In this document: one piece after another, positions 1,255-22,721 of the stretch
How positions within the stretch are numbered: the first letter of the stretch is position 1
How the letters are laid out: each line of letters starts with the position of its first letter
From: a virus
Lineage: Duplodnaviria > Heunggongvirae > Uroviricota > Caudoviricetes
Length of the DNA stretch: 23,861 nucleotides
Virus record (IMG/VR): IMGVR_UViG_2579778956_000004
Location: 1-23,861 of that record
Strand: one strand, 5' to 3'
The notes under the pieces: generated by a model
The model's input: only the letters and a program-made list of their open reading frames with translations
Told to the model about the DNA's origin: nothing
Databases searched by the model: none
Position numbers and translations under genes: made by a program

Positions 1255-1449
1255 TTAATTATTCTGCTGATTTTCTTCCATCTCGGCTTCTGCTGCCAGT
1301 GATTCAATTTTGTCTGCGAATATTGCTGACAGCGTTGCAAATTCAGCATCAGTGACAGCGGGAATTGGAACAAACCTGATCCCGCTGTGTGCAAGCATGT
1401 TTGCAGTTTCAAGGCATTTCCTTAAATCTGCTGGTGATGCCCGGTTCAT
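1255..1449 (-). CDS. Small hypothetical protein (64 aa), translationally coupled to the methyltransferase
   Basis: ATG at 1449-1447 overlaps the methyltransferase stop in an ATGA arrangement (plus strand 1446-1449 = TCAT). Product MNRASPADLRKCLETANMLAHSGIRFVPIPAV... has an acidic C-terminus. Convergent with int, 3 nt from its stop. No family recognised. Confidence 0.35.
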   Translation of the reverse strand: MNRASPADLRKCLETANMLAHSGIRFVPIPAVTDAEFATLSAIFADKIESLAAEAEMEENQQNN

Positions 1450-2096
1450 GCTGCACGCTCCCGCCCCTGGTTGTCTGTTGGTGACAGCGGAGCATTGCTG
1501 AATGCATTTGTTAATCTGGCAATATCCAACGCGTATCCAGGGTGTAGTTGCACTGCCGGGTCTTCGCACTGATTACCCCAAACATCGAAGCCATGAGACG
1601 ACTGGCGGGCGAACAGTTCAATGCGAGAAACATCGCCTAACAATTGCACAAGTTTTTCACGAACGACATCTGGTTTTCTTGAATGCTCAAGCCGCGGTGC
1701 GGTAAATGACTGAACGATCCCTGCATTAATGCGCGGAGGTAGTTTTCCCTTTACTGCAAACAGGCAATCTTCACTATTGGCGCGAGTCATGTGACCCATA
1801 CCCATAACCAGTTTATCTGGTTGTCGACTACCACATTTTATCCACGTGAATCCCTTCATGGTCATCAGACGGAATCCCCAGGCTTCAACAACTTTTAGTG
1901 CTTCGAGTGGTTGTGTTGGCACCCACCACATGGCCAACAGACAGTTTTCATCGGCCAAATCCCACACAGGAAGGCGGCAGATATCCATCACACTCATAAC
2001 CGGATATTTAAAACCGGCACCGCGATTACCATCTGCGGCTTTGTCCCGGTATACCCAGGGTGGATCTGCATAGATTAGTGTGTATTTCTTAGTCAT
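1446..2096 (-). CDS. MT-A70-family N6-adenine DNA methyltransferase (orphan, phage-type)
   Basis: 216-aa product MTKKYTLIYADPPWVYRDKAADGNRGAGFKYPVMSV... carries the DPPW catalytic motif near the N-terminus, as in MT-A70/Dam-like phage methyltransferases. No adjacent restriction endonuclease gene. Confidence 0.85.
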   Translation of the reverse strand: MTKKYTLIYADPPWVYRDKAADGNRGAGFKYPVMSVMDICRLPVWDLADENCLLAMWWVPTQPLEALKVVEAWGFRLMTMKGFTWIKCGSRQPDKLVMGMGHMTRANSEDCLFAVKGKLPPRINAGIVQSFTAPRLEHSRKPDVVREKLVQLLGDVSRIELFARQSSHGFDVWGNQCEDPAVQLHPGYALDIARLTNAFSNAPLSPTDNQGRERAA

Positions 2097-2795: not shown

Positions 2796-3239
2796 TTACA
2801 TAGATGTTTCGTTTAATTCTTCCCGACGAACGCTGTAAACGTCGGTGGCTTTTGCCAGCAGTTCGTCATCATCTGAAAGTTTTTGTGCAATGTATTTGTA
2901 AGCCTTATCCAGTTCGGAGACAGTGCTGTAATTCATCGCTGCGCTGGTATCCGCTACATCACGAAGAAATGCTTCTTCGTCAGCTTTACCTTGTTTCGTC
3001 CGACGATCGAACTTCGGTGAAACAATGAAGCGTTTGTCGAATTCTCCAGGCTCCAGAAGCAGACAGTGCAATGCGGTTCCAATATCCAGTGCAGACTTTT
3101 TCTCTTCGTCTTCTGGTGCTGCCTGGACCCATTTAAGAAGCGCCGGATTCTTGGCAACCATGTCCAGTTGCGACTTACTCACGCCGTCACCGGCGTGGTA
3201 GTCTTCGTTGCTGATGTCGAAATAAATTCCCGGTTTCAT
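2796..3239 (-). CDS. RecE-like / PD-(D/E)XK-family nuclease N-terminal domain protein, probably truncated
   Basis: N-terminus MKPGIYFDISNEDYHAGDGVSKSQLDMVAKNPALLKW...GTALHCLLLEPGEF resembles the N-terminal region of exodeoxyribonuclease-VIII-like prophage nucleases. Only 147 aa, whereas this family is usually about twice as long as I recall it. Confidence 0.45.
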   Translation of the reverse strand: MKPGIYFDISNEDYHAGDGVSKSQLDMVAKNPALLKWVQAAPEDEEKKSALDIGTALHCLLLEPGEFDKRFIVSPKFDRRTKQGKADEEAFLRDVADTSAAMNYSTVSELDKAYKYIAQKLSDDDELLAKATDVYSVRREELNETSM

Positions 3240-3535
3240 GCCGCGTCCCTCTGTCCATCAAGCTGATCCGCCAGATCCCAGCGGGCGATAATTGCCATTG
3301 CCTCTCGCCGATAGGCATCCATCAGTTCTTCGAACTCAGGGCTGTCTTTAGCAGCCTCCAGTACTTCCTGACGAACGCCTTTGCCTGTTACAACGTCAAA
3401 AGTTGAGGACAGTTGATGAAGTCGGATGCTCTCAATCAGTTCAACTTGTCGGTCATATAGCTGTTCTGACAGGCGGTAGTCCTTGTCGAATGCCAGCATG
3501 ATTTTTTGAAGATTTTTCTGCTGATTAACGTTCAT
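3236..3535 (-). CDS. Hypothetical early-operon protein (99 aa)
   Basis: ATG at 3535 (MNVNQQKNLQ...) is preceded by GGGAGGG. Its stop overlaps the start of the nuclease-like gene (ATGA at 3236-3239). No family recognised. Confidence 0.45.
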   Translation of the reverse strand: MNVNQQKNLQKIMLAFDKDYRLSEQLYDRQVELIESIRLHQLSSTFDVVTGKGVRQEVLEAAKDSPEFEELMDAYRREAMAIIARWDLADQLDGQRDAA

Positions 3536-3537
3536 TA

Positions 3538-3690
3538 TCAGCCCTCCCATATCTCGTTATCGTTGGCTACATCGCGAGCTTCTTTGCTGACGAAAGCCCA
3601 CTTAATGCCTTCCTGTAAGGTGCGGAACTTCCAGCTCATGAATCCGCATGCAGTAACGCAGTACCAACCGTTGATGATTTTCCACTGCAT
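3538..3690 (-). CDS. Small hypothetical protein (50 aa), first gene of the leftward early operon
   Basis: Not in the ORF track (under 60 aa). ATG at 3690 preceded by GAGG; product MQWKIINGWYCVTACGFMSWKFRTLQEGIKWAFVSKEARDVANDNEIWEG; stop TGA lies 2 nt before the next ATG. Position is analogous to kil/cIII-type small genes of lambdoid pL operons. Confidence 0.3.
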   Translation of the reverse strand: MQWKIINGWYCVTACGFMSWKFRTLQEGIKWAFVSKEARDVANDNEIWEG

Positions 3691-3709
3691 AACTTGTTAC
3701 CTCGGTCTG

Positions 3710-3786
3710 TTACCGTTGAGGTAATAATTATGCGTATCTGGTTTGATGTCAATAGATATGAGTTAAAAAAATTACCCGTTAGGTAA
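3710..3786 (-). promoter_or_regulatory. Putative early-left promoter/operator region (OL-like) with two TTACC-N5-GGTAA palindromes
   Basis: Perfect inverted repeats TTACCGTTGAGGTAA (3710-3724) and TTACCCGTTAGGTAA (3772-3786) lie between the repressor terminator and the first leftward gene. Confidence 0.5.
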
Positions 3787-3796
3787 TCGAATAGGC

Positions 3797-3823
3797 AATA
3801 AAAAAGCCGCCATAAGGCGGCTT
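3797..3823 (-). terminator. Rho-independent terminator downstream of the repressor gene
   Basis: Plus strand AATAAAAAAGCCGCC-ATAA-GGCGGCTT. On the minus strand this is a GCCGCC/GGCGGC stem with a 4-nt loop followed by a U-tract, directly after the repressor stop at 3844. Confidence 0.65.
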
Positions 3824-3843
3824 ACTTACTGAAAAATATGATT

Positions 3844-4428
3844 TTATTGTTTGTTTTTTTCGTTCTGGTTGATGACAAATTCAATGTAACTTTCGATCTT
3901 TGCCTTCTCTGTTTCAGGTAACAATGCGTAGCGCGAGCGGTCATAGTTGATAGTTGCAGGATCATGCGGATGAATCAGTAGTTCATATCCGTGACGCCCG
4001 AATGCAGATGCAACATTCTCCAGGGTGGAAATGGAAACGCTGACCTCATTGTTTAACAGGCGGCTTATTGTCACCTGGGCGACGCCGGATGCGCGGTGAA
4101 GTTTTCCCTGAGTTGAAAGGTCGCGGCTTTCACTCATCCAGCGTTCCAGGTTGTGAGCCGCCAGTTGACCAATGTCGCTTGGTCCGACAGGCTGAAAACC
4201 TTCCTGAGAAAGCGAGCGATCGATATCAAGCCAGTTACGGGGTTTATTGGCGGCAGCTTCAATTTTTCGCGCAACCTGGTCGCCGATAACCTTCTTGCCA
4301 AGAGCCCAGCGGTTTACCAGATTTGCCTGAGTTCCAAGTTTTTCAGCCATCCGCGTCTGAACACCATTGAATTCACGGTCGATCAAGTCGTTGAGATTTT
4401 GCCTGCGGACGTCCTGGATACTTTTCAT
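3844..4428 (-). CDS. Prophage repressor, tandem helix-turn-helix, no S24 peptidase domain
   Basis: 194-aa product with two XRE-like HTH segments (TRMAEKLGTQANLVNRWALGKKVIGDQVARKIE and GKLHRASGVAQVTISRLLNNEVSVSISTLENVASAFG). No Ala-Gly/Ser-Lys autocleavage module is recognisable. Divergent from a Cro-like gene across an operator-rich spacer. Confidence 0.7.
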   Translation of the reverse strand: MKSIQDVRRQNLNDLIDREFNGVQTRMAEKLGTQANLVNRWALGKKVIGDQVARKIEAAANKPRNWLDIDRSLSQEGFQPVGPSDIGQLAAHNLERWMSESRDLSTQGKLHRASGVAQVTISRLLNNEVSVSISTLENVASAFGRHGYELLIHPHDPATINYDRSRYALLPETEKAKIESYIEFVINQNEKNKQ

Positions 4429-4483
4429 TTTCTGGAAAATCGCCTCATATCTGAATCAGAAGATGATTCAATTTAAAGCAATA

Positions 4484-4550
4484 TTACCCAACAGGTAAAT
4501 GCACCTCATGGGTAACTATCCTTGATTTTTGTTACCTTATAGGTGAATAT
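4484..4550. promoter_or_regulatory. Divergent immunity promoter/operator region (OR-like) with three operator-like sites
   Basis: TTACCCAACAGGTAA (4484-4498, perfect), GCACCTCATGGGTAA (4501-4515, half-site degenerate), TTACCTTATAGGTGA (4532-4546, one mismatch). Candidate rightward sigma-70 promoter TTGATT (4522-4527), 17-nt spacer, GAATAT (4545-4550) overlaps the third site. Confidence 0.5.
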
Positions 4551-4582
4551 TTATTATCTGAAATAAATATCAGGCAATAGCT

Positions 4583-4813
4583 ATGAGCGATAACGGACAT
4601 TTCGATTTCAAAAAGCACTGGCTTGCACTTACTCCGGATGAGCGTGAAGCCTTCGCACAGGAAGCCGGAACGACGAGTCACTATATCCAGACTCACTTAA
4701 CAGGTAAGCGCAAAATGCCAGGTAAGGTATTGATGGATGGGCTTTTTAAAGCCTGTAAATCAAGACAATGGCTGCGCTCAAAAGCAGAACTGGCATACTT
4801 CTTCTACTCATGA
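4583..4813 (+). CDS. Cro-like small DNA-binding regulator
   Basis: 76-aa ORF transcribed divergently from the repressor, immediately downstream of the operator cluster. Product MSDNGHFDFKKHWLALTPDEREAFAQEAGTTSHYIQTHLTGKRK... is consistent with Cro/YdaS-like HTH proteins. Confidence 0.55.
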   Translation: MSDNGHFDFKKHWLALTPDEREAFAQEAGTTSHYIQTHLTGKRKMPGKVLMDGLFKACKSRQWLRSKAELAYFFYS

Positions 4814-4835
4814 TATCCAGCCACAACCCTCTGTA

Positions 4836-4858
4836 GACCGCCATCCGGCGGTCTTTTC
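4836..4858 (+). terminator. Rho-independent terminator after the Cro-like gene (tR1-like position)
   Basis: GACCGCC-ATCC-GGCGGTC stem-loop followed by TTTTCAT, 23 nt downstream of the Cro-like stop. Confidence 0.6.
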
Positions 4859-4868
4859 ATATCTATTC

Positions 4869-4883
4869 GTACCTCAAAGGTAA
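4869..4883. promoter_or_regulatory. Operator-like palindrome upstream of the replication operon
   Basis: GTACCTCAAAGGTAA, one mismatch from TTACC-N5-GGTAA. Lies between the terminator and the ATG at 4963 and is preceded by the 11-mer ATCTATTCGTA (4861-4871). Confidence 0.4.
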
Positions 4884-4962
4884 TAAAAACCAAATATGGT
4901 TGATCTTTTTTTTGTGTCAGCACAAAATAACCGTAATCCCAATACTAATAACAGGGCTTACC

Positions 4963-5163
4963 ATGGAAATCATTACACGTATTGATGCCGCAAAGCGCGG
5001 ACTTAAACGCTACTACACCGGAAAAACATGTAAGCACGGACATGACAGTGAACGCTGGGTTTACAACGGACACTGTGTTGAGTGCACCATGGAATCAAAC
5101 CGTCGTATCAGGGCAGAGATTAAGCAGATCATGATTAATTCCTCCCCACAACATTCAAGCTGA
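4963..5163 (+). CDS. Small Cys/His-rich protein (66 aa), possible zinc-ribbon regulator
   Basis: Start chosen at the internal ATG at 4963 (MEIITRIDAAKRGLKRYYTGKTCKHGHDSERWVYNGHCVECT...), preceded by AGGG. The upstream extension in the ORF track would run through the promoter region. Cys-x-His-Gly-His ... His-Cys-x-x-Cys spacing suggests metal binding. Confidence 0.45.
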   Translation: MEIITRIDAAKRGLKRYYTGKTCKHGHDSERWVYNGHCVECTMESNRRIRAEIKQIMINSSPQHSS

Positions 5164-5178
5164 TAGCGGAGATTAATC

Positions 5179-5994
5179 ATGAGCAGACATGCAACAGATT
5201 GGGCCTGGGAGACAGATCCAGGTAGCTCGTCATTAAAGCTCATACTGCTCTCGATGGCTGACAGAGCCGATGAATATAACCTCTGCTACCCCAGCATAGA
5301 ACGCCTCGTTAAAGACACTTGCCTGAATAAAAAAACCGTGCAGGCCGGACTTATATCGCTCATGAAAATGGGGCTTATTTCAGATACCGGGGAGAGAAAG
5401 GGAGCGACAAAAAGAGTGCGGGTTTTCTCTCTTAATATAACCAAAAACGGGAACATTAAAGGCAACCGAGAGGGGGGCAATGAACCCGAAAACGGTAATG
5501 TTACCGAAAACGGGAATATACCCAAAAACGGGATGTTGAATGATCCCAAAAACGGGATGTTGAATGATCCCAAAAACGGGATCCAGAACCAGTCATATAA
5601 CCAGTCATTTAACCAAGAGAGGGAGAGCAGGACAAAAAACGGGGATTCTGTGCATCATGACCCCGGCGCAAACAACGCCGTGATGAATAACTTTGTTCCT
5701 CCTGGTGGGTCAGGGCAATTAGGCAAATTTGTCATGCATGAACAATGGCAGCCATCAGATGACTTTCTTCGGAAAAGCTCATTGCAGGGGATCTACCTGG
5801 ACAGTCTGCCAACGGCACAGGAACTTGCAGAGTTCAGAATTTACTGGATGGCTGAGGGTAAGGCATACCATCAGGCACAGTGGGAGCAGAAGCTGGCAAG
5901 GCGGCTGCAGATTAGCAGACAGAAGCAATCAACATTACCTGATAACAACGTTCCGCACTGGAACAGCCCTGAAGCATGGGAGGATTTCTTGTGA
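5179..5994 (+). CDS. Replication initiator, lambda-O-like (N-terminal HTH, repeat-encoded linker, C-terminal domain)
   Basis: SD GGAG before the ATG at 5179. N-terminal LKLILLSMADRADEYNLCYPSIERLVKDTCLNKKTVQAGLISLMKMGLI is HTH-like. The central region is encoded by the iteron repeats. The stop overlaps the next gene start (GTGA at 5991-5994). Confidence 0.7.
   Translation: MSRHATDWAWETDPGSSSLKLILLSMADRADEYNLCYPSIERLVKDTCLNKKTVQAGLISLMKMGLISDTGERKGATKRVRVFSLNITKNGNIKGNREGGNEPENGNVTENGNIPKNGMLNDPKNGMLNDPKNGIQNQSYNQSFNQERESRTKNGDSVHHDPGANNAVMNNFVPPGGSGQLGKFVMHEQWQPSDDFLRKSSLQGIYLDSLPTAQELAEFRIYWMAEGKAYHQAQWEQKLARRLQISRQKQSTLPDNNVPHWNSPEAWEDFL
5441..5645 (+). repeat. Iteron-like direct repeats inside the initiator gene (candidate origin of replication)
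   Basis: Seven copies of an AAAACGG(G/T)A core at about 5443, 5489, 5506, 5524, 5548, 5572 and 5634, including two perfect tandem 24-bp units CCCAAAAACGGGATGTTGAATGAT (5521-5544, 5545-5568). Followed by AACCAGTCAT x2 (5587-5608) in an AT-richer stretch. Confidence 0.6.
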
Positions 5995-8510
5995 ACAACG
6001 TTTTTACCGCGATACAAAACCGTGACGGAGAAGCCCTTTCTCGCATGTCAGGTTATGAGCATCAGTACACCAACAATGACAACGTGGTGAACATGTCAGC
6101 AGAGAGGCTTGTTGATGCCCTTTTCAAACAGCTGAAACAACTGTTTCCGGCGGCAGTGGTAACCAACCTGAAGACGCCAGAGCAGGAAGTTGCTGCAAAA
6201 CAGCAGTGGATTGCTGCGTTTGCCGAAGGTGGGATCCGAACCCGTGAACAGGTTTCTGCTGGTATGCGCCACGCCCGCGCCAGTGAATCTCCGTTCTGGC
6301 CGTCGCCAGGGCAATTCATCAAGTGGTGCAAAGACAGCAAGATGGTTCTTGGCGTCACCATTGACGATGTGATGGCGGAGTTTCACCGGTACAGCAAGGA
6401 AAAAAGTTTATATCCTGGTGGTCCCGAAAGATTCCCGTGGCGGCATCCGGTTATGTACTGGGTCGTATGTGATACCCGCCGTGCAATGTATCAGCGCCAG
6501 CTTAGCGAGATTGAGGTTGAGAAACACGCGCGCAGGCTGCTCGATGATTGGGCGAAAAAGGTGGCTTCCGGACAGCAGATACCCGATCCGGTGATCAGCA
6601 TACAGGCAAAGCCAGAGCCCATGAGTACACCTCCGGACACAGGGAGAGACGTTTACCATCCACCAGGGCGAAGTTTCGGGTGCATGCCTAACGCCGCTAT
6701 TCGCCGTGCAGATAGTAACTACTATCGCGCCGTTACAGCAGGCAAAACAGGTACTTTGCGCCCTTCGCATACAGAAGGCACATCATGGGATGGCTGGGGC
6801 GGATCCGGTGATGATGACACTGGCATTGAGTGGGAATATCTGCACAGTGGTTTTGGCATTGCCCGTATCACTGCTGCAAATGGAACTACTGCAACTGCCG
6901 AGGTGATTTCCTATATCCCTTCGCAGGTAGTTGGCGAGGATAATGCCAGCTATAAATGGGCTAAATATGCCTGGAACAGTGTTAATGGTTATCCTGGCAC
7001 TGTTGTTTATTATCAACAACGTCTTTACTTCGCCGCATCGACTGCGTTCCCTCAGACTATCTGGGCCAGCCGTACTGGGGATTATAAGGATTTTGGCAAA
7101 AGCAATCCTACGCAGGATGACGACAGAATTATCTACACCTATGCCGGGCGTCAGGTTAATGAGATCCGTCACCTGATTGATGTTGGTTCGCTGGTGGCAC
7201 TGACTTCCGGAGGTGAGTACGTCATCACCGGCGACCAGAACAAAGTGTTAACCCCATCATCATTTGCATTCAGCTCTCAGGGATCAAATGGCTCAAGCAA
7301 CGTCCCGCCAATTGCCGTGGCGAATATTGCTTTGTTCGTCCAGGAGAAAGGCAGTGTTGTACGTGATCTGGCCTACTCATTCGATGTTGACGGCTATCAG
7401 GGGAACGACCTGACCATCCTTGCCAATCATCTTTTTCAGAAGCACAGCATTGTTGACTGGTGCTTCTCGATTGTCCCTTACTCCAGCGCCTTCTGCATTC
7501 GTGATGACGGTAAATTGCTGGTGATGACCTATTTGCGTGATCAGCAGGTTTTTGCATGGGCACCACAATCCAGTACCGGGAAATATGAAAGCACATGCAG
7601 TATCAGCGAAGGCAATGAAGATGCGGTGTATTTCGTCGTTAACCGAACCGTTAACGGGCAAACAGTGAGATACATAGAGCGACTGTCCAGCCGTTTATTT
7701 ACCAGCGATGAAGATGCTTTCTTTGTTGATTCTGGCCTTAGCTATGATGGAAGAAATACGTCTGACAGAACGATGACCATCACTGGTGGTTCTGGTGAAT
7801 GGGATTACCGCGCGGAATATACAATCAGTATTTCTGGTGGTGCGTACTTCACCAGTAGTGATGTCGGCGCGCAACTACAGTTCCCTTATGCCGGAACTGA
7901 TCCTGATACTGGCGATGAAGTGTCAAAAGAATTACGTTGCGACATTATTTCTGTAACCAGCAATACCGCTGTAGTGGTTCGTGCTAACAGGAACGTCCCG
8001 CCATCCCTCAGGAATGTGGCCACCACGAACTGGCAGATGGCGCGCCGGACATTTGGCGGCTTGTCTCATCTTGAAGGCCAGACCGTAAACATCCTCTCTG
8101 ATGCGAACGTGGAACCACAGAAAGTGGTTTCCGGAGGTGCCGTCACGCTGGAATCTCCGGGGGCTGTAGTGCACATCGGCCTGCCAATAACTGCTGAATT
8201 CGAAACACTGGATATCAACATTAACGGACAGGAAACGCTGCTGGACAAAAAACAGGTGATCCCGTCCGTTACTCTGGTTGTGAATGCCAGTCGCGGCATC
8301 TGGGCGACTACGCCCGGCGGTAAATGGTACGAATATCCACAGCGTGAATTCGAGTTCTACGATGATCCTGTTGATGACGCTACCGGAAAAGTAGAAGTAA
8401 AACTGGACAGTAACTGGGGCAAAAACGGACGTGTAAGAATCCGTCAGCTTGACCCGTTGCCGCTGTCTGTTCTTGCCGTTATTCCTCGTCTTACTGTTGG
8501 GGGATTCTGA
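5991..8510 (+). CDS. Chimeric ORF: lambda-P-like replication protein N-terminal region continuous with about 600 aa of structural-type (tail-tube-like?) sequence
   Basis: Start assigned to GTG 5991, with SD GGGAGGA 6 nt upstream and coupled to the O-like stop. The first ~215 aa include KQQWIAAFAEGGIRTREQVSAGMRHARASESPFWPSPGQFIKWC, which closely parallels lambda P as I recall it (RQWVLAFRENGITTMEQVNAGMRVARRQNRPFLPSPGQFVAWC). The remainder is a Gly/Ser/Thr-rich sequence with no intervening stop, and its stop overlaps the next gene start. Confidence 0.6.
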   Translation: MNNVFTAIQNRDGEALSRMSGYEHQYTNNDNVVNMSAERLVDALFKQLKQLFPAAVVTNLKTPEQEVAAKQQWIAAFAEGGIRTREQVSAGMRHARASESPFWPSPGQFIKWCKDSKMVLGVTIDDVMAEFHRYSKEKSLYPGGPERFPWRHPVMYWVVCDTRRAMYQRQLSEIEVEKHARRLLDDWAKKVASGQQIPDPVISIQAKPEPMSTPPDTGRDVYHPPGRSFGCMPNAAIRRADSNYYRAVTAGKTGTLRPSHTEGTSWDGWGGSGDDDTGIEWEYLHSGFGIARITAANGTTATAEVISYIPSQVVGEDNASYKWAKYAWNSVNGYPGTVVYYQQRLYFAASTAFPQTIWASRTGDYKDFGKSNPTQDDDRIIYTYAGRQVNEIRHLIDVGSLVALTSGGEYVITGDQNKVLTPSSFAFSSQGSNGSSNVPPIAVANIALFVQEKGSVVRDLAYSFDVDGYQGNDLTILANHLFQKHSIVDWCFSIVPYSSAFCIRDDGKLLVMTYLRDQQVFAWAPQSSTGKYESTCSISEGNEDAVYFVVNRTVNGQTVRYIERLSSRLFTSDEDAFFVDSGLSYDGRNTSDRTMTITGGSGEWDYRAEYTISISGGAYFTSSDVGAQLQFPYAGTDPDTGDEVSKELRCDIISVTSNTAVVVRANRNVPPSLRNVATTNWQMARRTFGGLSHLEGQTVNILSDANVEPQKVVSGGAVTLESPGAVVHIGLPITAEFETLDININGQETLLDKKQVIPSVTLVVNASRGIWATTPGGKWYEYPQREFEFYDDPVDDATGKVEVKLDSNWGKNGRVRIRQLDPLPLSVLAVIPRLTVGGF

Positions 8511-16842: not shown

Positions 16843-16866
16843 GGCCGCTTTCGCGGCCTTTTCTTT
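16843..16866 (+). terminator. Rho-independent terminator after the small membrane genes
   Basis: GGCCGC-TTTC-GCGGCC stem-loop followed by TTTTCTTT. It overlaps the stop codon of the convergent minus-strand gene. Confidence 0.5.
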
Positions 16867-17122
16867 ATGTGGTTTGTTTTCGTAATTGTTCGGCACAATA
16901 GTCTAGATGTGTTTGCAGATCCTGCATAGACATCTGTGAGCTGGTGACGTAGTTAATCAGTGCAGTCAGTTCGGCAAGTGGGCCATCGACATTAAATCCA
17001 TCTTTATCGAGATCCCGGAGTAATTTCATCAAGTGCGATCCATCCACCAGTGACCTGACGCCTCCCGGCGTGTGAATCCTTTCGGTAAATCCGTCTTCCA
17101 GTGGATAGTGATACTGCTGCAT
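16865..17122 (-). CDS. Small SOS-regulated protein (85 aa), candidate antirepressor
   Basis: Start assigned to ATG at 17122 (MQQYHYPLEDGFTERIHTPGGVRSLVDGSHLMKLLRDLDKDGF...) with GGAG 8 nt upstream. The longer 126-aa ORF in the track would read through the LexA box and operator. A near-consensus LexA box sits about 20 nt upstream of this ATG. Confidence 0.55.
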   Translation of the reverse strand: MQQYHYPLEDGFTERIHTPGGVRSLVDGSHLMKLLRDLDKDGFNVDGPLAELTALINYVTSSQMSMQDLQTHLDYCAEQLRKQTT

Positions 17123-17141
17123 CTTATCTTCTCCATGCAAT

Positions 17142-17161
17142 AACTGTATATTTATACAGTA
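17142..17161. promoter_or_regulatory. LexA (SOS) box
   Basis: AACTGTATATTTATACAGTA matches the E. coli LexA consensus TACTGTATATATATACAGTA at 18 of 20 positions, with the CTGT-N8-ACAG core perfect. On the minus strand a TATAAA -10-like hexamer lies inside the box. Confidence 0.75.
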
Positions 17162-17198
17162 GCAAATAATTTGTTTGCTATCCAGCACGTTTTGCAAA

Positions 17199-17213
17199 TT
17201 ACCTGAAAGGTAA
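17199..17213. promoter_or_regulatory. Operator-like palindrome TTACC-N5-GGTAA between the SOS gene and the tailspike gene
   Basis: TTACCTGAAAGGTAA, a perfect inverted repeat of the same type as at the immunity region, followed by the shared 11-mer ATCTATTCGTA (17215-17225). Confidence 0.45.
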
Positions 17214-17317
17214 TATCTATTCGTATTTACAGTCTTTCTATCCATATGTGGTTTTGCAGGTAATAGAATAACCAGATATGCGGCGCAACGGGTGCTGCGA
17301 CTATCTGGAGATTTAAC

Positions 17318-20594: not shown

Positions 20595-20772
20595 TACTCA
20601 ATCCTGTTTTATACGTAATTTATTTCATTTTAAATGCTAAACCATCCACAGTCACTCAGTTCTATGCCGCGTTTGTGTTTTTTGTGGCTAGACATCAGGT
20701 AATTTACTCCATATATGGTTTATTGTGTATGATGAACTCACCAACTAAGGGGGTTTTTATGCACAGTAAACG

Positions 20773-22594: not shown

Positions 22595-22721
22595 TTTCCG
22601 GTGACGGTATATAAAACGGTACGGTGAAAATCAGGTTGCAGAAAGTTGTTATCAGTCAATTGGTTATGGTATCCGTAAATAATTGAGTGGGAATGATTTT
22701 AATCCCTGCACTATGAATGAA

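Follow-up and report, generated by a model that had tools for sequence, protein, structure and literature searches.

The window, the whole 23,861-nucleotide stretch of viral DNA analyzed here, carries an immunity region in which a repressor gene (rep) and a small Cro-like gene diverge from a shared intergenic space. Past the Cro-like gene lie, in order, a hairpin, an operator-like palindrome, promoter-like hexamers and the replication genes (Table 1). By its sequence, the window is a phiV10/epsilon15-type (genus Uetakevirus) temperate podovirus prophage of E. coli at guaA. The immunity region (3600-5400) is 98% identical at the nucleotide level to Escherichia phage phiV10 and its sisters ZX5, phiv142-3 and PAS61, while the tailspike/acyltransferase block differs from that of phiV10. 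Position 1 of the window is the integrase start codon, and the phage/host junction lies near 22698; beyond it are the E. coli genes yfgI and yfgH, adjoining guaA, the known attachment locus of phiV10-type phages.

Table 1. Genes and sequence elements of the immunity, early-right and ant regions (window coordinates)
Feature	Position	Strand	Details
Rep-type operator TTACCGTTGAGGTAA	3710..3724		perfect match; overlaps -10/start of the leftward early promoter; epsilon15 equivalent annotated as repressor site
Leftward early promoter (PL-like)	3724..3752	-	TTGACA-17-AATTAT; best scan match, 10/12; operators on both sides
Rep-type operator	3772..3786		perfect match; upstream of PL; mirror counterpart of 4869-4883, flanks in inverted-repeat relation
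Intrinsic terminator of rep	3804..3823	-	8-bp stem, 6 GC pairs, tail TTTTATTG; mirror counterpart of 4835-4854
Rep repressor gene, SPC32H type	3844..4428	-	194 aa; two HTH regions, no peptidase domain
Central operator cluster	4484..4546		rep/cro intergenic; 4484-4498, weak 4501-4515, 4532-4546
Cro-like gene	4583..4813	+	76 aa; PHROG 35 'transcriptional repressor', E = 8.7e-13; divergent from rep
Intrinsic-type terminator of the cro unit	4835..4858	+	8-bp stem, arms AGACCGCC (4835-4842) and GGCGGTCT (4847-4854), loop ATCC, tail TTTCATATCT (UUUUCA)
Rep-type operator GTACCTCAAAGGTAA	4869..4883		TTACC-N5-GGTAA with one mismatch; 14 nt past the hairpin; start point of the next promoter ~60 bp downstream
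Conserved near-palindrome AACCAAATATGGTT	4888..4901		abuts -35; AAt.ATCCa.aTAtGG, 82% conserved
Inferred early-right promoter	4900..4928	+	-35 TTGATC (4900-4905), 17-nt spacer, -10 CAAAAT (4923-4928)
Half-site TAACC	4928..4932		TTACC in most relatives; overlaps the end of the -10
gp40-like gene	4963..5163	+	66 aa; first of the early-right operon; PHROG 1081, family without assigned function
DnaT-like replication protein gene	5179..5994	+	Pfam DnaT, E = 1.1e-15, plus HTH_36
Chimeric ORF	5976..8510	+	844 aa; N-terminal lambda-P-like part fused in frame to C-terminal virion-protein part
Antirepressor gene ant	16865..17122	-	85 aa; PDB 5D50_E; PHROG 450, 1760
LexA-box-like CTGTATATTTATACAG	17144..17159		21 nt upstream of the ant start; read from sequence
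Rep-type operator TTACCTGAAAGGTAA	17199..17213		perfect match; between ant and the tailspike gene

The repressor is 100% identical to Rep of phiV10 and ZX5 and matches the structures of SPC32H Rep, both PDB 5D50_A (E = 4e-42, residues 1-190) and the C-terminal domain in 5D4Z (E = 4e-20). Homology to SPC32H Rep spans the N-terminal DNA-binding region as well as the C-terminal region of tetramerization and Ant binding. Overall identity between the two repressors is merely ~42%, and the well-conserved N-terminal DNA-binding region fits the TTACC/GGTAA half-site that they share. Pfam matches are limited to HTH_3 and a weak YdaS-like HTH, with no autocleavage (S24) domain. Rep is described as acting as a tetramer on palindromic DNA sites, with the DNA-binding domains supplied by different dimers and with a tetramerization domain of the looping type (PMC9638917; PMC9986798). 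The divergently encoded Cro-like protein is 59-84% identical among relatives. The LexA-box-like sequence in front of ant agrees with the SPC32H Ant system, and ant is predicted to be under LexA control. Ant itself matches 5D50_E over 84 of its 85 residues (E = 3.3e-47). The window resembles in these respects the Rep-Ant switch of SPC32H and epsilon15 (PDB 5D50, 5D4Z), with homologues of both proteins and a LexA-box-like sequence before ant. The leftward operon encodes a PerC-family activator and an AlpA-family protein.

To the right, the early operon opens with the gp40-like gene, in whose product C23, H27 and C38 do not vary and C41 hardly does, a C/H/C/C pattern suggestive of a zinc knuckle with a long helix behind it. 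Sequence searches of Pfam, NCBIfam and the PDB gave no match, 42 of 42 database homologues are without names, and the AlphaFold model (pLDDT 89.6) found nothing better in a Foldseek search against the PDB than E = 6.3. This ORF had been singled out in an earlier sequence-only reading as a place to look for antiterminator or late-activator homology; none emerged from PHROGs, Pfam, NCBIfam, the PDB or Foldseek, and neither sequence nor fold was informative for either role. The adjoining DnaT-like gene contains iteron-like 24-bp direct repeats.

The palindrome after the Cro-like gene is one member of a larger set. Sites of the form TTACC-N5-GGTAA with at most one mismatch occur six times in the window against 0.50 expected, and none of 100 shuffles reached six. 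This motif was derived from the window itself, and independent genomes are therefore the proper test. There are 14 sites in phiV10 (0.78 expected), 15 in epsilon15 (0.78 expected) and 13 in Klebsiella phage BUCT711 (0.51 expected), so that enrichment is 12- to 25-fold across the four genomes. Epsilon15 has the same half-sites and operators at the same positions, several of which carry the GenBank label 'protein_bind repressor', and its central cluster shows the same three-site layout with spacings of 17 and 30 bp. The site between ant and the tailspike gene likewise has equivalents in phiV10, epsilon15 and BUCT711, the one in epsilon15 being an annotated repressor site. The post-cro site and the central operators are without annotation in the epsilon15 record; in that phage the post-cro site departs from the motif at two positions (ACACC...), and the preceding hairpin lacks a good U-run. 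No operators or promoters are annotated in the phiV10 record, and none are defined for ZX5 in its paper. From the distribution of the motif and the epsilon15 annotation, we infer that Rep binds the TTACC-N5-GGTAA sites, including the one at 4869-4883.

The interval from the Cro-like gene to the next gene was compared in 14 sequences from at least nine genera, namely the window, the phages Tyrion, BUCT554, BUCT711, epsilon15 and SPN1S, and eight prophages from Citrobacter, Erwinia, Kluyvera, Buttiauxella, Pseudocitrobacter, Scandinavium and Klebsiella. A hairpin occupies the post-cro position in 14 of 14 relatives, with folding energies of -9.8 to -15.4 kcal/mol. In the window it begins 21 nt past the Cro-like stop codon, has six GC pairs in its 8-bp stem according to the terminator scan and folds with -15 kcal/mol (z = -4.23; 0 of 200 shuffles equally stable). 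It persists in the fold of the entire cro transcript, and the phiV10 record gives the same hairpin (33078-33100) as a rho-independent terminator. Covariation is weak, a two-sided change being seen in one of five consensus pairs of the alignment. The U-tract is modest (UUUUCAUAUCU, with the last stem U included), comprising just four U followed by CAUAUCU. Good U-runs are confined to the phiV10 group, Buttiauxella and Scandinavium; that of the epsilon15/Klebsiella branch is poor (UCCUUCC). The sequence-only reading had called this a strong intrinsic terminator: fold, z-score and the phiV10 annotation all support a terminator, while 'strong' is somewhat generous for a run of four U. With so few U in the window and a poor tract in the epsilon15/Klebsiella branch, the hairpin may terminate incompletely, and a fraction of the transcripts from the cro promoter is likely to continue past it.

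Downstream of the hairpin, the order of elements is common to all 14 sequences. The GC-rich hairpin is followed after 10-16 nt by xxACC-N5-GGTAA, after a further 16-17 nt by TTGAT(C/A) and after 15-17 nt by (C/G/A)AAAAT, which usually runs directly into TACC some 30 nt before the start codon. Expressed as the mean frequency of the commonest base in 11 non-redundant sequences, conservation is 100% (11/11) for the right half-site GGTAA, 98% for the -35 hexamer TTGATC and 97% for the -10 hexamer CAAAAT. It falls to 82% in the 16 nt from operator to -35, 71% in the left half-site of the operator, 58% in the 3' part of the promoter spacer and 47% in the N5 between the half-sites. This alternation of fixed and free positions is, as far as an alignment can tell, the pattern of a real operator and a real -35/-10 pair. 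Taken by itself, TTGATC-17-CAAAAT agrees with the sigma-70 consensus at 8 of 12 positions, has a C at the first position of the -10 and falls below the threshold of the promoter scan; given its conservation, it probably functions as a sigma-70-type promoter. The sequence-only reading had noted an operator-like palindrome and promoter-like sequences ahead of the replication genes, and both are upheld, with a motif enriched 12-fold in the window and with the half-site and hexamers 97-100% conserved in relatives. Compared with other boundaries, this promoter has one peculiarity, in that its well-conserved half-sites are the two promoter-proximal ones only; the left half-site of the post-cro operator is essentially absent in four relatives. 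Elements related to the near-palindrome that abuts the -35, of the form CATATGTGGTT, are found close to the starts of other units.

In the immunity region, the left and right sides mirror each other. Reading leftward, rep is followed by its terminator (3823-3804, annotated in phiV10 at 32040-32066), an operator, the PL-like promoter and a second operator, the two operators lying 62 bp apart from centre to centre. The same plan recurs outside the immunity region. In phiV10, for instance, the unit after the P-like gene begins with a terminator (35038-57), an operator (35070), the hexamers TTGATT-17-TTTAAT of the p45 promoter and another operator (35132). These two operators are again 62 bp apart, and pairs in BUCT711 are 62-63 bp apart. 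PL and the p45 promoter share an arrangement of operator, 17-19 nt, -35, 17 nt and a -10 whose final T belongs to a TTACC site; the half-site at 4928-4932 stands where these two promoters have full downstream operators. After each of the strongest phiV10 hairpins (50-67, 33078-97 and, on the minus strand, 32066-47) an operator follows within 10-20 nt, and in that phage the junctions after rep, after P and before terminase are of the terminator-then-operator kind. In these genomes, a terminator followed by an operator is the standard way of bounding a unit. The post-cro feature is a unit boundary of the ordinary, conserved sort for a known phage group, its hairpin already annotated in phiV10.

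Compared with phiV10, the window lacks two blocks, one of 13.9 kb and one of 1.3 kb inside recET; the larger gap starts within the P-like replication gene, passes over the genome ends and stops within the virion gene p15. The prophage at guaA in E. coli 2017.15.01CC matches the window with 99.97-100% identity, and the window lacks 12.3 kb and 1.3 kb of it at the same two gaps. The missing 12.3-kb block holds the remainder of the early-right operon and the terminase, portal and capsid genes. At the junction the two flanks form the chimeric ORF, in which the Pfam Phage_lambda_P match is limited to residues 45-205 and the breakpoints fall at 6695-6699 by blastn. This chimeric P/virion junction occurs in 0 of 5,426 complete E. 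coli genomes, 540 of which carry both halves. The replication-structural junction is, on this comparison, a deletion of 12-14 kb, conceivably an assembly or splicing artefact, and does not reflect the native design. What the sequence-only reading took for a direct coupling of replication to structural genes is this deletion junction, as the intact 2017.15.01CC prophage and phiV10 carry the missing 12.3 and 13.9 kb. The accompanying question of how late expression is timed cannot be posed from the window, because the relevant late-control region, with terminase, portal and capsid, is deleted from it.

Taken together, it seems probable that 4835-4932 combines an insulating terminator of the cro unit with a separate, Rep-gated early-right promoter. 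The hairpin and its U-run would end a short monocistronic cro transcript. Fourteen bases on, an SPC32H-type operator would be bound by Rep, as the motif distribution and the epsilon15 annotation suggest. Sixteen bases past the operator begins the predicted sigma-70-type promoter, with a TTACC-type half-site overlapping the end of its -10. This promoter, and not read-through from the cro promoter, would drive the early-right operon of gp40-like, DnaT-like and P-like genes. In a lysogen, tetrameric Rep would keep it shut. A single repressor bound some 60 bp ahead of the start would not keep RNA polymerase off the promoter, and the promoter-proximal partner is only a half-site; repression would probably combine the upstream site with either the weak promoter-proximal site or the central operators. 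Upon SOS induction, LexA-controlled Ant would remove Rep and the early-right promoter would fire. Given the mirror-image arrangement on the left, rep and cro would form an insulated cassette, with an early promoter under its own gate on either side. Such a cassette, with its own promoter downstream, would need no N-like antiterminator at the post-cro terminator.

A lambda-like organization is the obvious alternative to this Rep-gated promoter. In lambda, termination at tR1 depends on Rho, and N overrides it through nutR. The window shares with lambda a repressor, a divergent cro, a terminator and then replication genes that include a P homologue. On such an account the hairpin would be the equivalent of tR1, and the replication genes would be expressed mainly by read-through from the cro promoter with the help of an unrecognized protein or RNA antiterminator. 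The hairpin is placed like tR1; its short U-run, of poor quality in the epsilon15 branch, suggests leakiness; and the small gp40-like and p39-like proteins have no assigned function. The window differs from lambda, however, in that its terminator is of the intrinsic type, no boxA/nut or N was found and a separate operator-associated promoter follows. BoxA-like matches in the window are at chance level (10 against 10.3 expected), with none between 3600 and 5200. An Rfam search of 3500-5400 returned sub-threshold matches only, at the rep terminator. Among the tested ORFs of the window, no N or Q family was matched in Pfam, PHROGs or NCBIfam, in agreement with the sequence-only reading, which had recognized no N-like or Q-like antiterminator. 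No arginine-rich motif is encoded by the first gene after PL (3538-3690), whose sole family, PHROG 898, is without assigned function. The gp40-like gene is itself downstream of the terminator, so its product would not be made before read-through. The strongly conserved promoter past the terminator would make read-through dispensable, and the same terminator-operator layout recurs after rep, where antitermination makes no sense. With no boxA/nut-like signal found and a conserved promoter following the terminator, the analogy to tR1 drawn in the sequence-only reading is positional only, and we regard a lambda-like mechanism as very unlikely.

The operator at 4869-4883 might instead serve mainly as a loop anchor or a roadblock. 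As an anchor, it would be joined through a Rep tetramer to the central operators, at a distance of 340-390 bp, with cro inside the loop; as a roadblock, Rep bound 14 nt past the hairpin would stop polymerases that escape termination. Such roles would suit a tetramer with a looping-type domain (PMC9638917; PMC9986798), the weak left half-site, for which binding probably needs cooperativity, and the occurrence of an operator within 10-20 nt past the terminator at four boundaries. Spacing nonetheless ties the site to the promoter: the distance from GGTAA to the -35 is 16-17 nt in 14 of 14 relatives, whereas the gap to the terminator varies from 10 to 16 nt. As the principal function this is unlikely; as an additional one it is compatible with the Rep-gated promoter. 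Even less can be said for a leftward promoter, CTGACA-16-CATATT (4920-4893), that the operator would control and that would yield antisense cro RNA or a PRE-like transcript for repressor establishment. It scores 9/12 in the scan, the operator lies just downstream of its predicted start and the hairpin has no U-run in the reverse direction, but its -35 is not conserved, reading TCTCTG in Tyrion and differing again in BUCT554, epsilon15 and Klebsiella phages, and promoter-like scan matches are fewer in the window than in shuffles (7 against 14.6). This candidate was dropped for its non-conserved -35 and is extremely improbable. That palindrome and hexamers are chance features of AT-rich intergenic DNA has practically no chance of being correct. 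The promoter does fall under the scan threshold and two-mismatch matches to the operator are mostly noise (21 against 7.1 expected), but sites with at most one mismatch are enriched 12-fold in the window, and the elements are invariant in relatives in which neighbouring bases have diverged.

Intact relatives retain the region in which late control might reside. Among phiV10 p45-p55, no Q-like family was found. The last gene before terminase, p55, stands at the Q position, in the region deleted from the window, and belongs to PHROG 536 ('transcriptional regulator'). Neither Pfam nor the PDB gave a match for its product, whose N-terminal part shows weak similarity to a CopG-like protein regulated by LexA and whose C-terminus is rich in Cys. 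As a Q analogue p55 was set aside, with PHROG 536 as its sole family assignment and an unusable AlphaFold model (pLDDT 55). In phiV10, operators stand ahead of the units for terminase, portal, tail fibre, lysis and integrase, and in epsilon15 and BUCT711 ahead of most of these. Downstream of several operators, at 23-56 nt, is a CATATGTGGTT-like element followed by a -10-like hexamer, with a poor -35. The CATATGTGGTT motif is not enriched at two mismatches (15 against 12.4), clustering near operators is confined to matches with at most one mismatch, and it is a lead only.

Dispersed control by a single repressor has a precedent in phage P1, in which operators for the C1 repressor are scattered over the genome and head many separate transcription units, and in which late genes need the activator Lpa. 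By analogy, one repressor motif is present at 13-15 sites per genome in phiV10, epsilon15 and BUCT711, whereas the proteins and the operator sequence are unrelated to those of P1. A tentative extension, which we hold to be possible and rather doubtful, is that Uetakeviruses time and silence their genes without an antitermination cascade. Terminator-bounded units would each be headed by one or two Rep operators, and late units, with activator-type promoters made up of CATATGTGGTT and a -10 with a poor -35, would be switched on by a phage factor. The units so headed may include those of terminase, portal, tail fibre, lysis and integrase. Candidates for the late activator are the gp40-like zinc-knuckle protein, the PerC-like protein and the Cys-rich p55.

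The significance of the window on its own is small, as the apparent puzzle came from the deletion. What it adds to a known repressor regulon is the post-cro operator together with the conserved TTGATC-17-CAAAAT promoter, neither of which is annotated in the phiV10 and epsilon15 records. The pair offers a testable map of how the replication operon would be gated in phages employed in Salmonella research and in the typing of E. coli O157. In three diverged intact genomes, nearly all units have Rep-type sites at their head, which provides a starting point for understanding late-gene control in the Uetakevirus group.

Almost all transcription units of the intact genomes are headed by operators of the type assigned to the SPC32H-type repressor Rep (TTACC-N5-GGTAA), including the terminase, portal, ant/tail fibre, lysis, integrase and post-replication units. 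In the phiV10 genome (L003) these operators lie at 87, 105, 3252, 20497, 20877, 24692, 26870, 35070 and 35132, and matching sites occur in epsilon15 (L018) and Klebsiella phage BUCT711 (L020). Paired operators, spaced 62-63 bp apart, are found at the leftward early promoter PL and at the p45 promoter of the phiV10 unit that follows the P gene. In phiV10 the small terminase gene is annotated as starting at 41, ahead of a strong terminator (50-67) and two operators (87-119). Unlike this annotation, the epsilon15 gene begins downstream of its operators, and the phiV10 start is therefore probably mis-annotated.

A second element, resembling CATATGTGGTT, is located 23-56 nt 3' of operators in both the window and phiV10 (see table). 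In late units it is followed after 7-10 nt by a -10-like hexamer, while the -35 is poor. No statistical enrichment of the element was detected when two mismatches were allowed; it may mark activator-dependent late promoters.

Features located in the window and in phiV10
Feature	Position	Remarks
MT-A70 adenine methylase gene	window 1446-2096	phage-encoded
Small deletion junction	window 2948-2949	1.3-kb gap in recET vs 2017.15.01CC prophage
Large deletion junction	window 6695-6699	12.3-kb gap vs 2017.15.01CC prophage
Ant antirepressor homologue	window 16865-17122	minus strand
LexA-box-like CTGTATATTTATACAG	window 17144-17159	upstream of ant
Perfect Rep operator match	window 17199-17213	between ant and tailspike gene
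CATATGTGGTT-like elements	window 4888-4901, 17243-17253, 20710-20720	
CATATGTGGTT-like elements	phiV10 (L003) 3308, 20921, 24739, 35116	

Together, the ant gene, the LexA-box-like sequence and the operator in window 16865-17213 constitute the SOS-antirepressor induction module seen in SPC32H-type phages. An exact 13-mer, ATATCTATTCGTA, occurs at window 4859-4871 and 17212-17224, each time next to an operator, and a mirrored CGAATAG is present at 3788-3794. The 13-mer is confined to the phiV10 lineage, with none in epsilon15, and may be a remnant of regulatory modules having been duplicated or having recombined with one another. A 31-nt inverted repeat with 77% complementarity (window 4514-4544 vs 4871-4901) has one arm in the region of the cro promoter and operator and the other in that of the post-cro operator, which suggests a common ancestry of these two modules. 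A Cro-like protein 97% identical to that of the window is also encoded by a 408-bp contig (L009) labelled Corallococcus exercitus, a myxobacterium; this contig almost certainly represents enterobacterial or phage contamination of that assembly.

Apart from two clean deletion junctions, the window is 99.97-100% identical to the prophage of E. coli 2017.15.01CC. The larger gap creates an in-frame P::virion-protein chimera (ORF 5976-8510), and its junction was found in none of 5,426 complete E. coli genomes. Lacking genes for terminase, portal and capsid, the window prophage is defective.

Within the DnaT-like gene, at window ~5440-5585, two tandem copies of a 24-bp repeat, CCCAAAAACGGGATGTTGAATGAT, are accompanied by several partial CC(A/G)AAAACGG copies. 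These repeats look like iterons, suggesting a replication origin inside this initiator gene, much as the lambda origin lies within O. The conserved -35 hexamer of the putative post-cro promoter, TTGATC, contains a GATC (window 4902-4905) that is shared by 13 of the 14 relatives. GATC is the site of Dam methylation, and the phage encodes an adenine methylase of its own; it is possible that the activity of the post-cro promoter is linked to methylation state.
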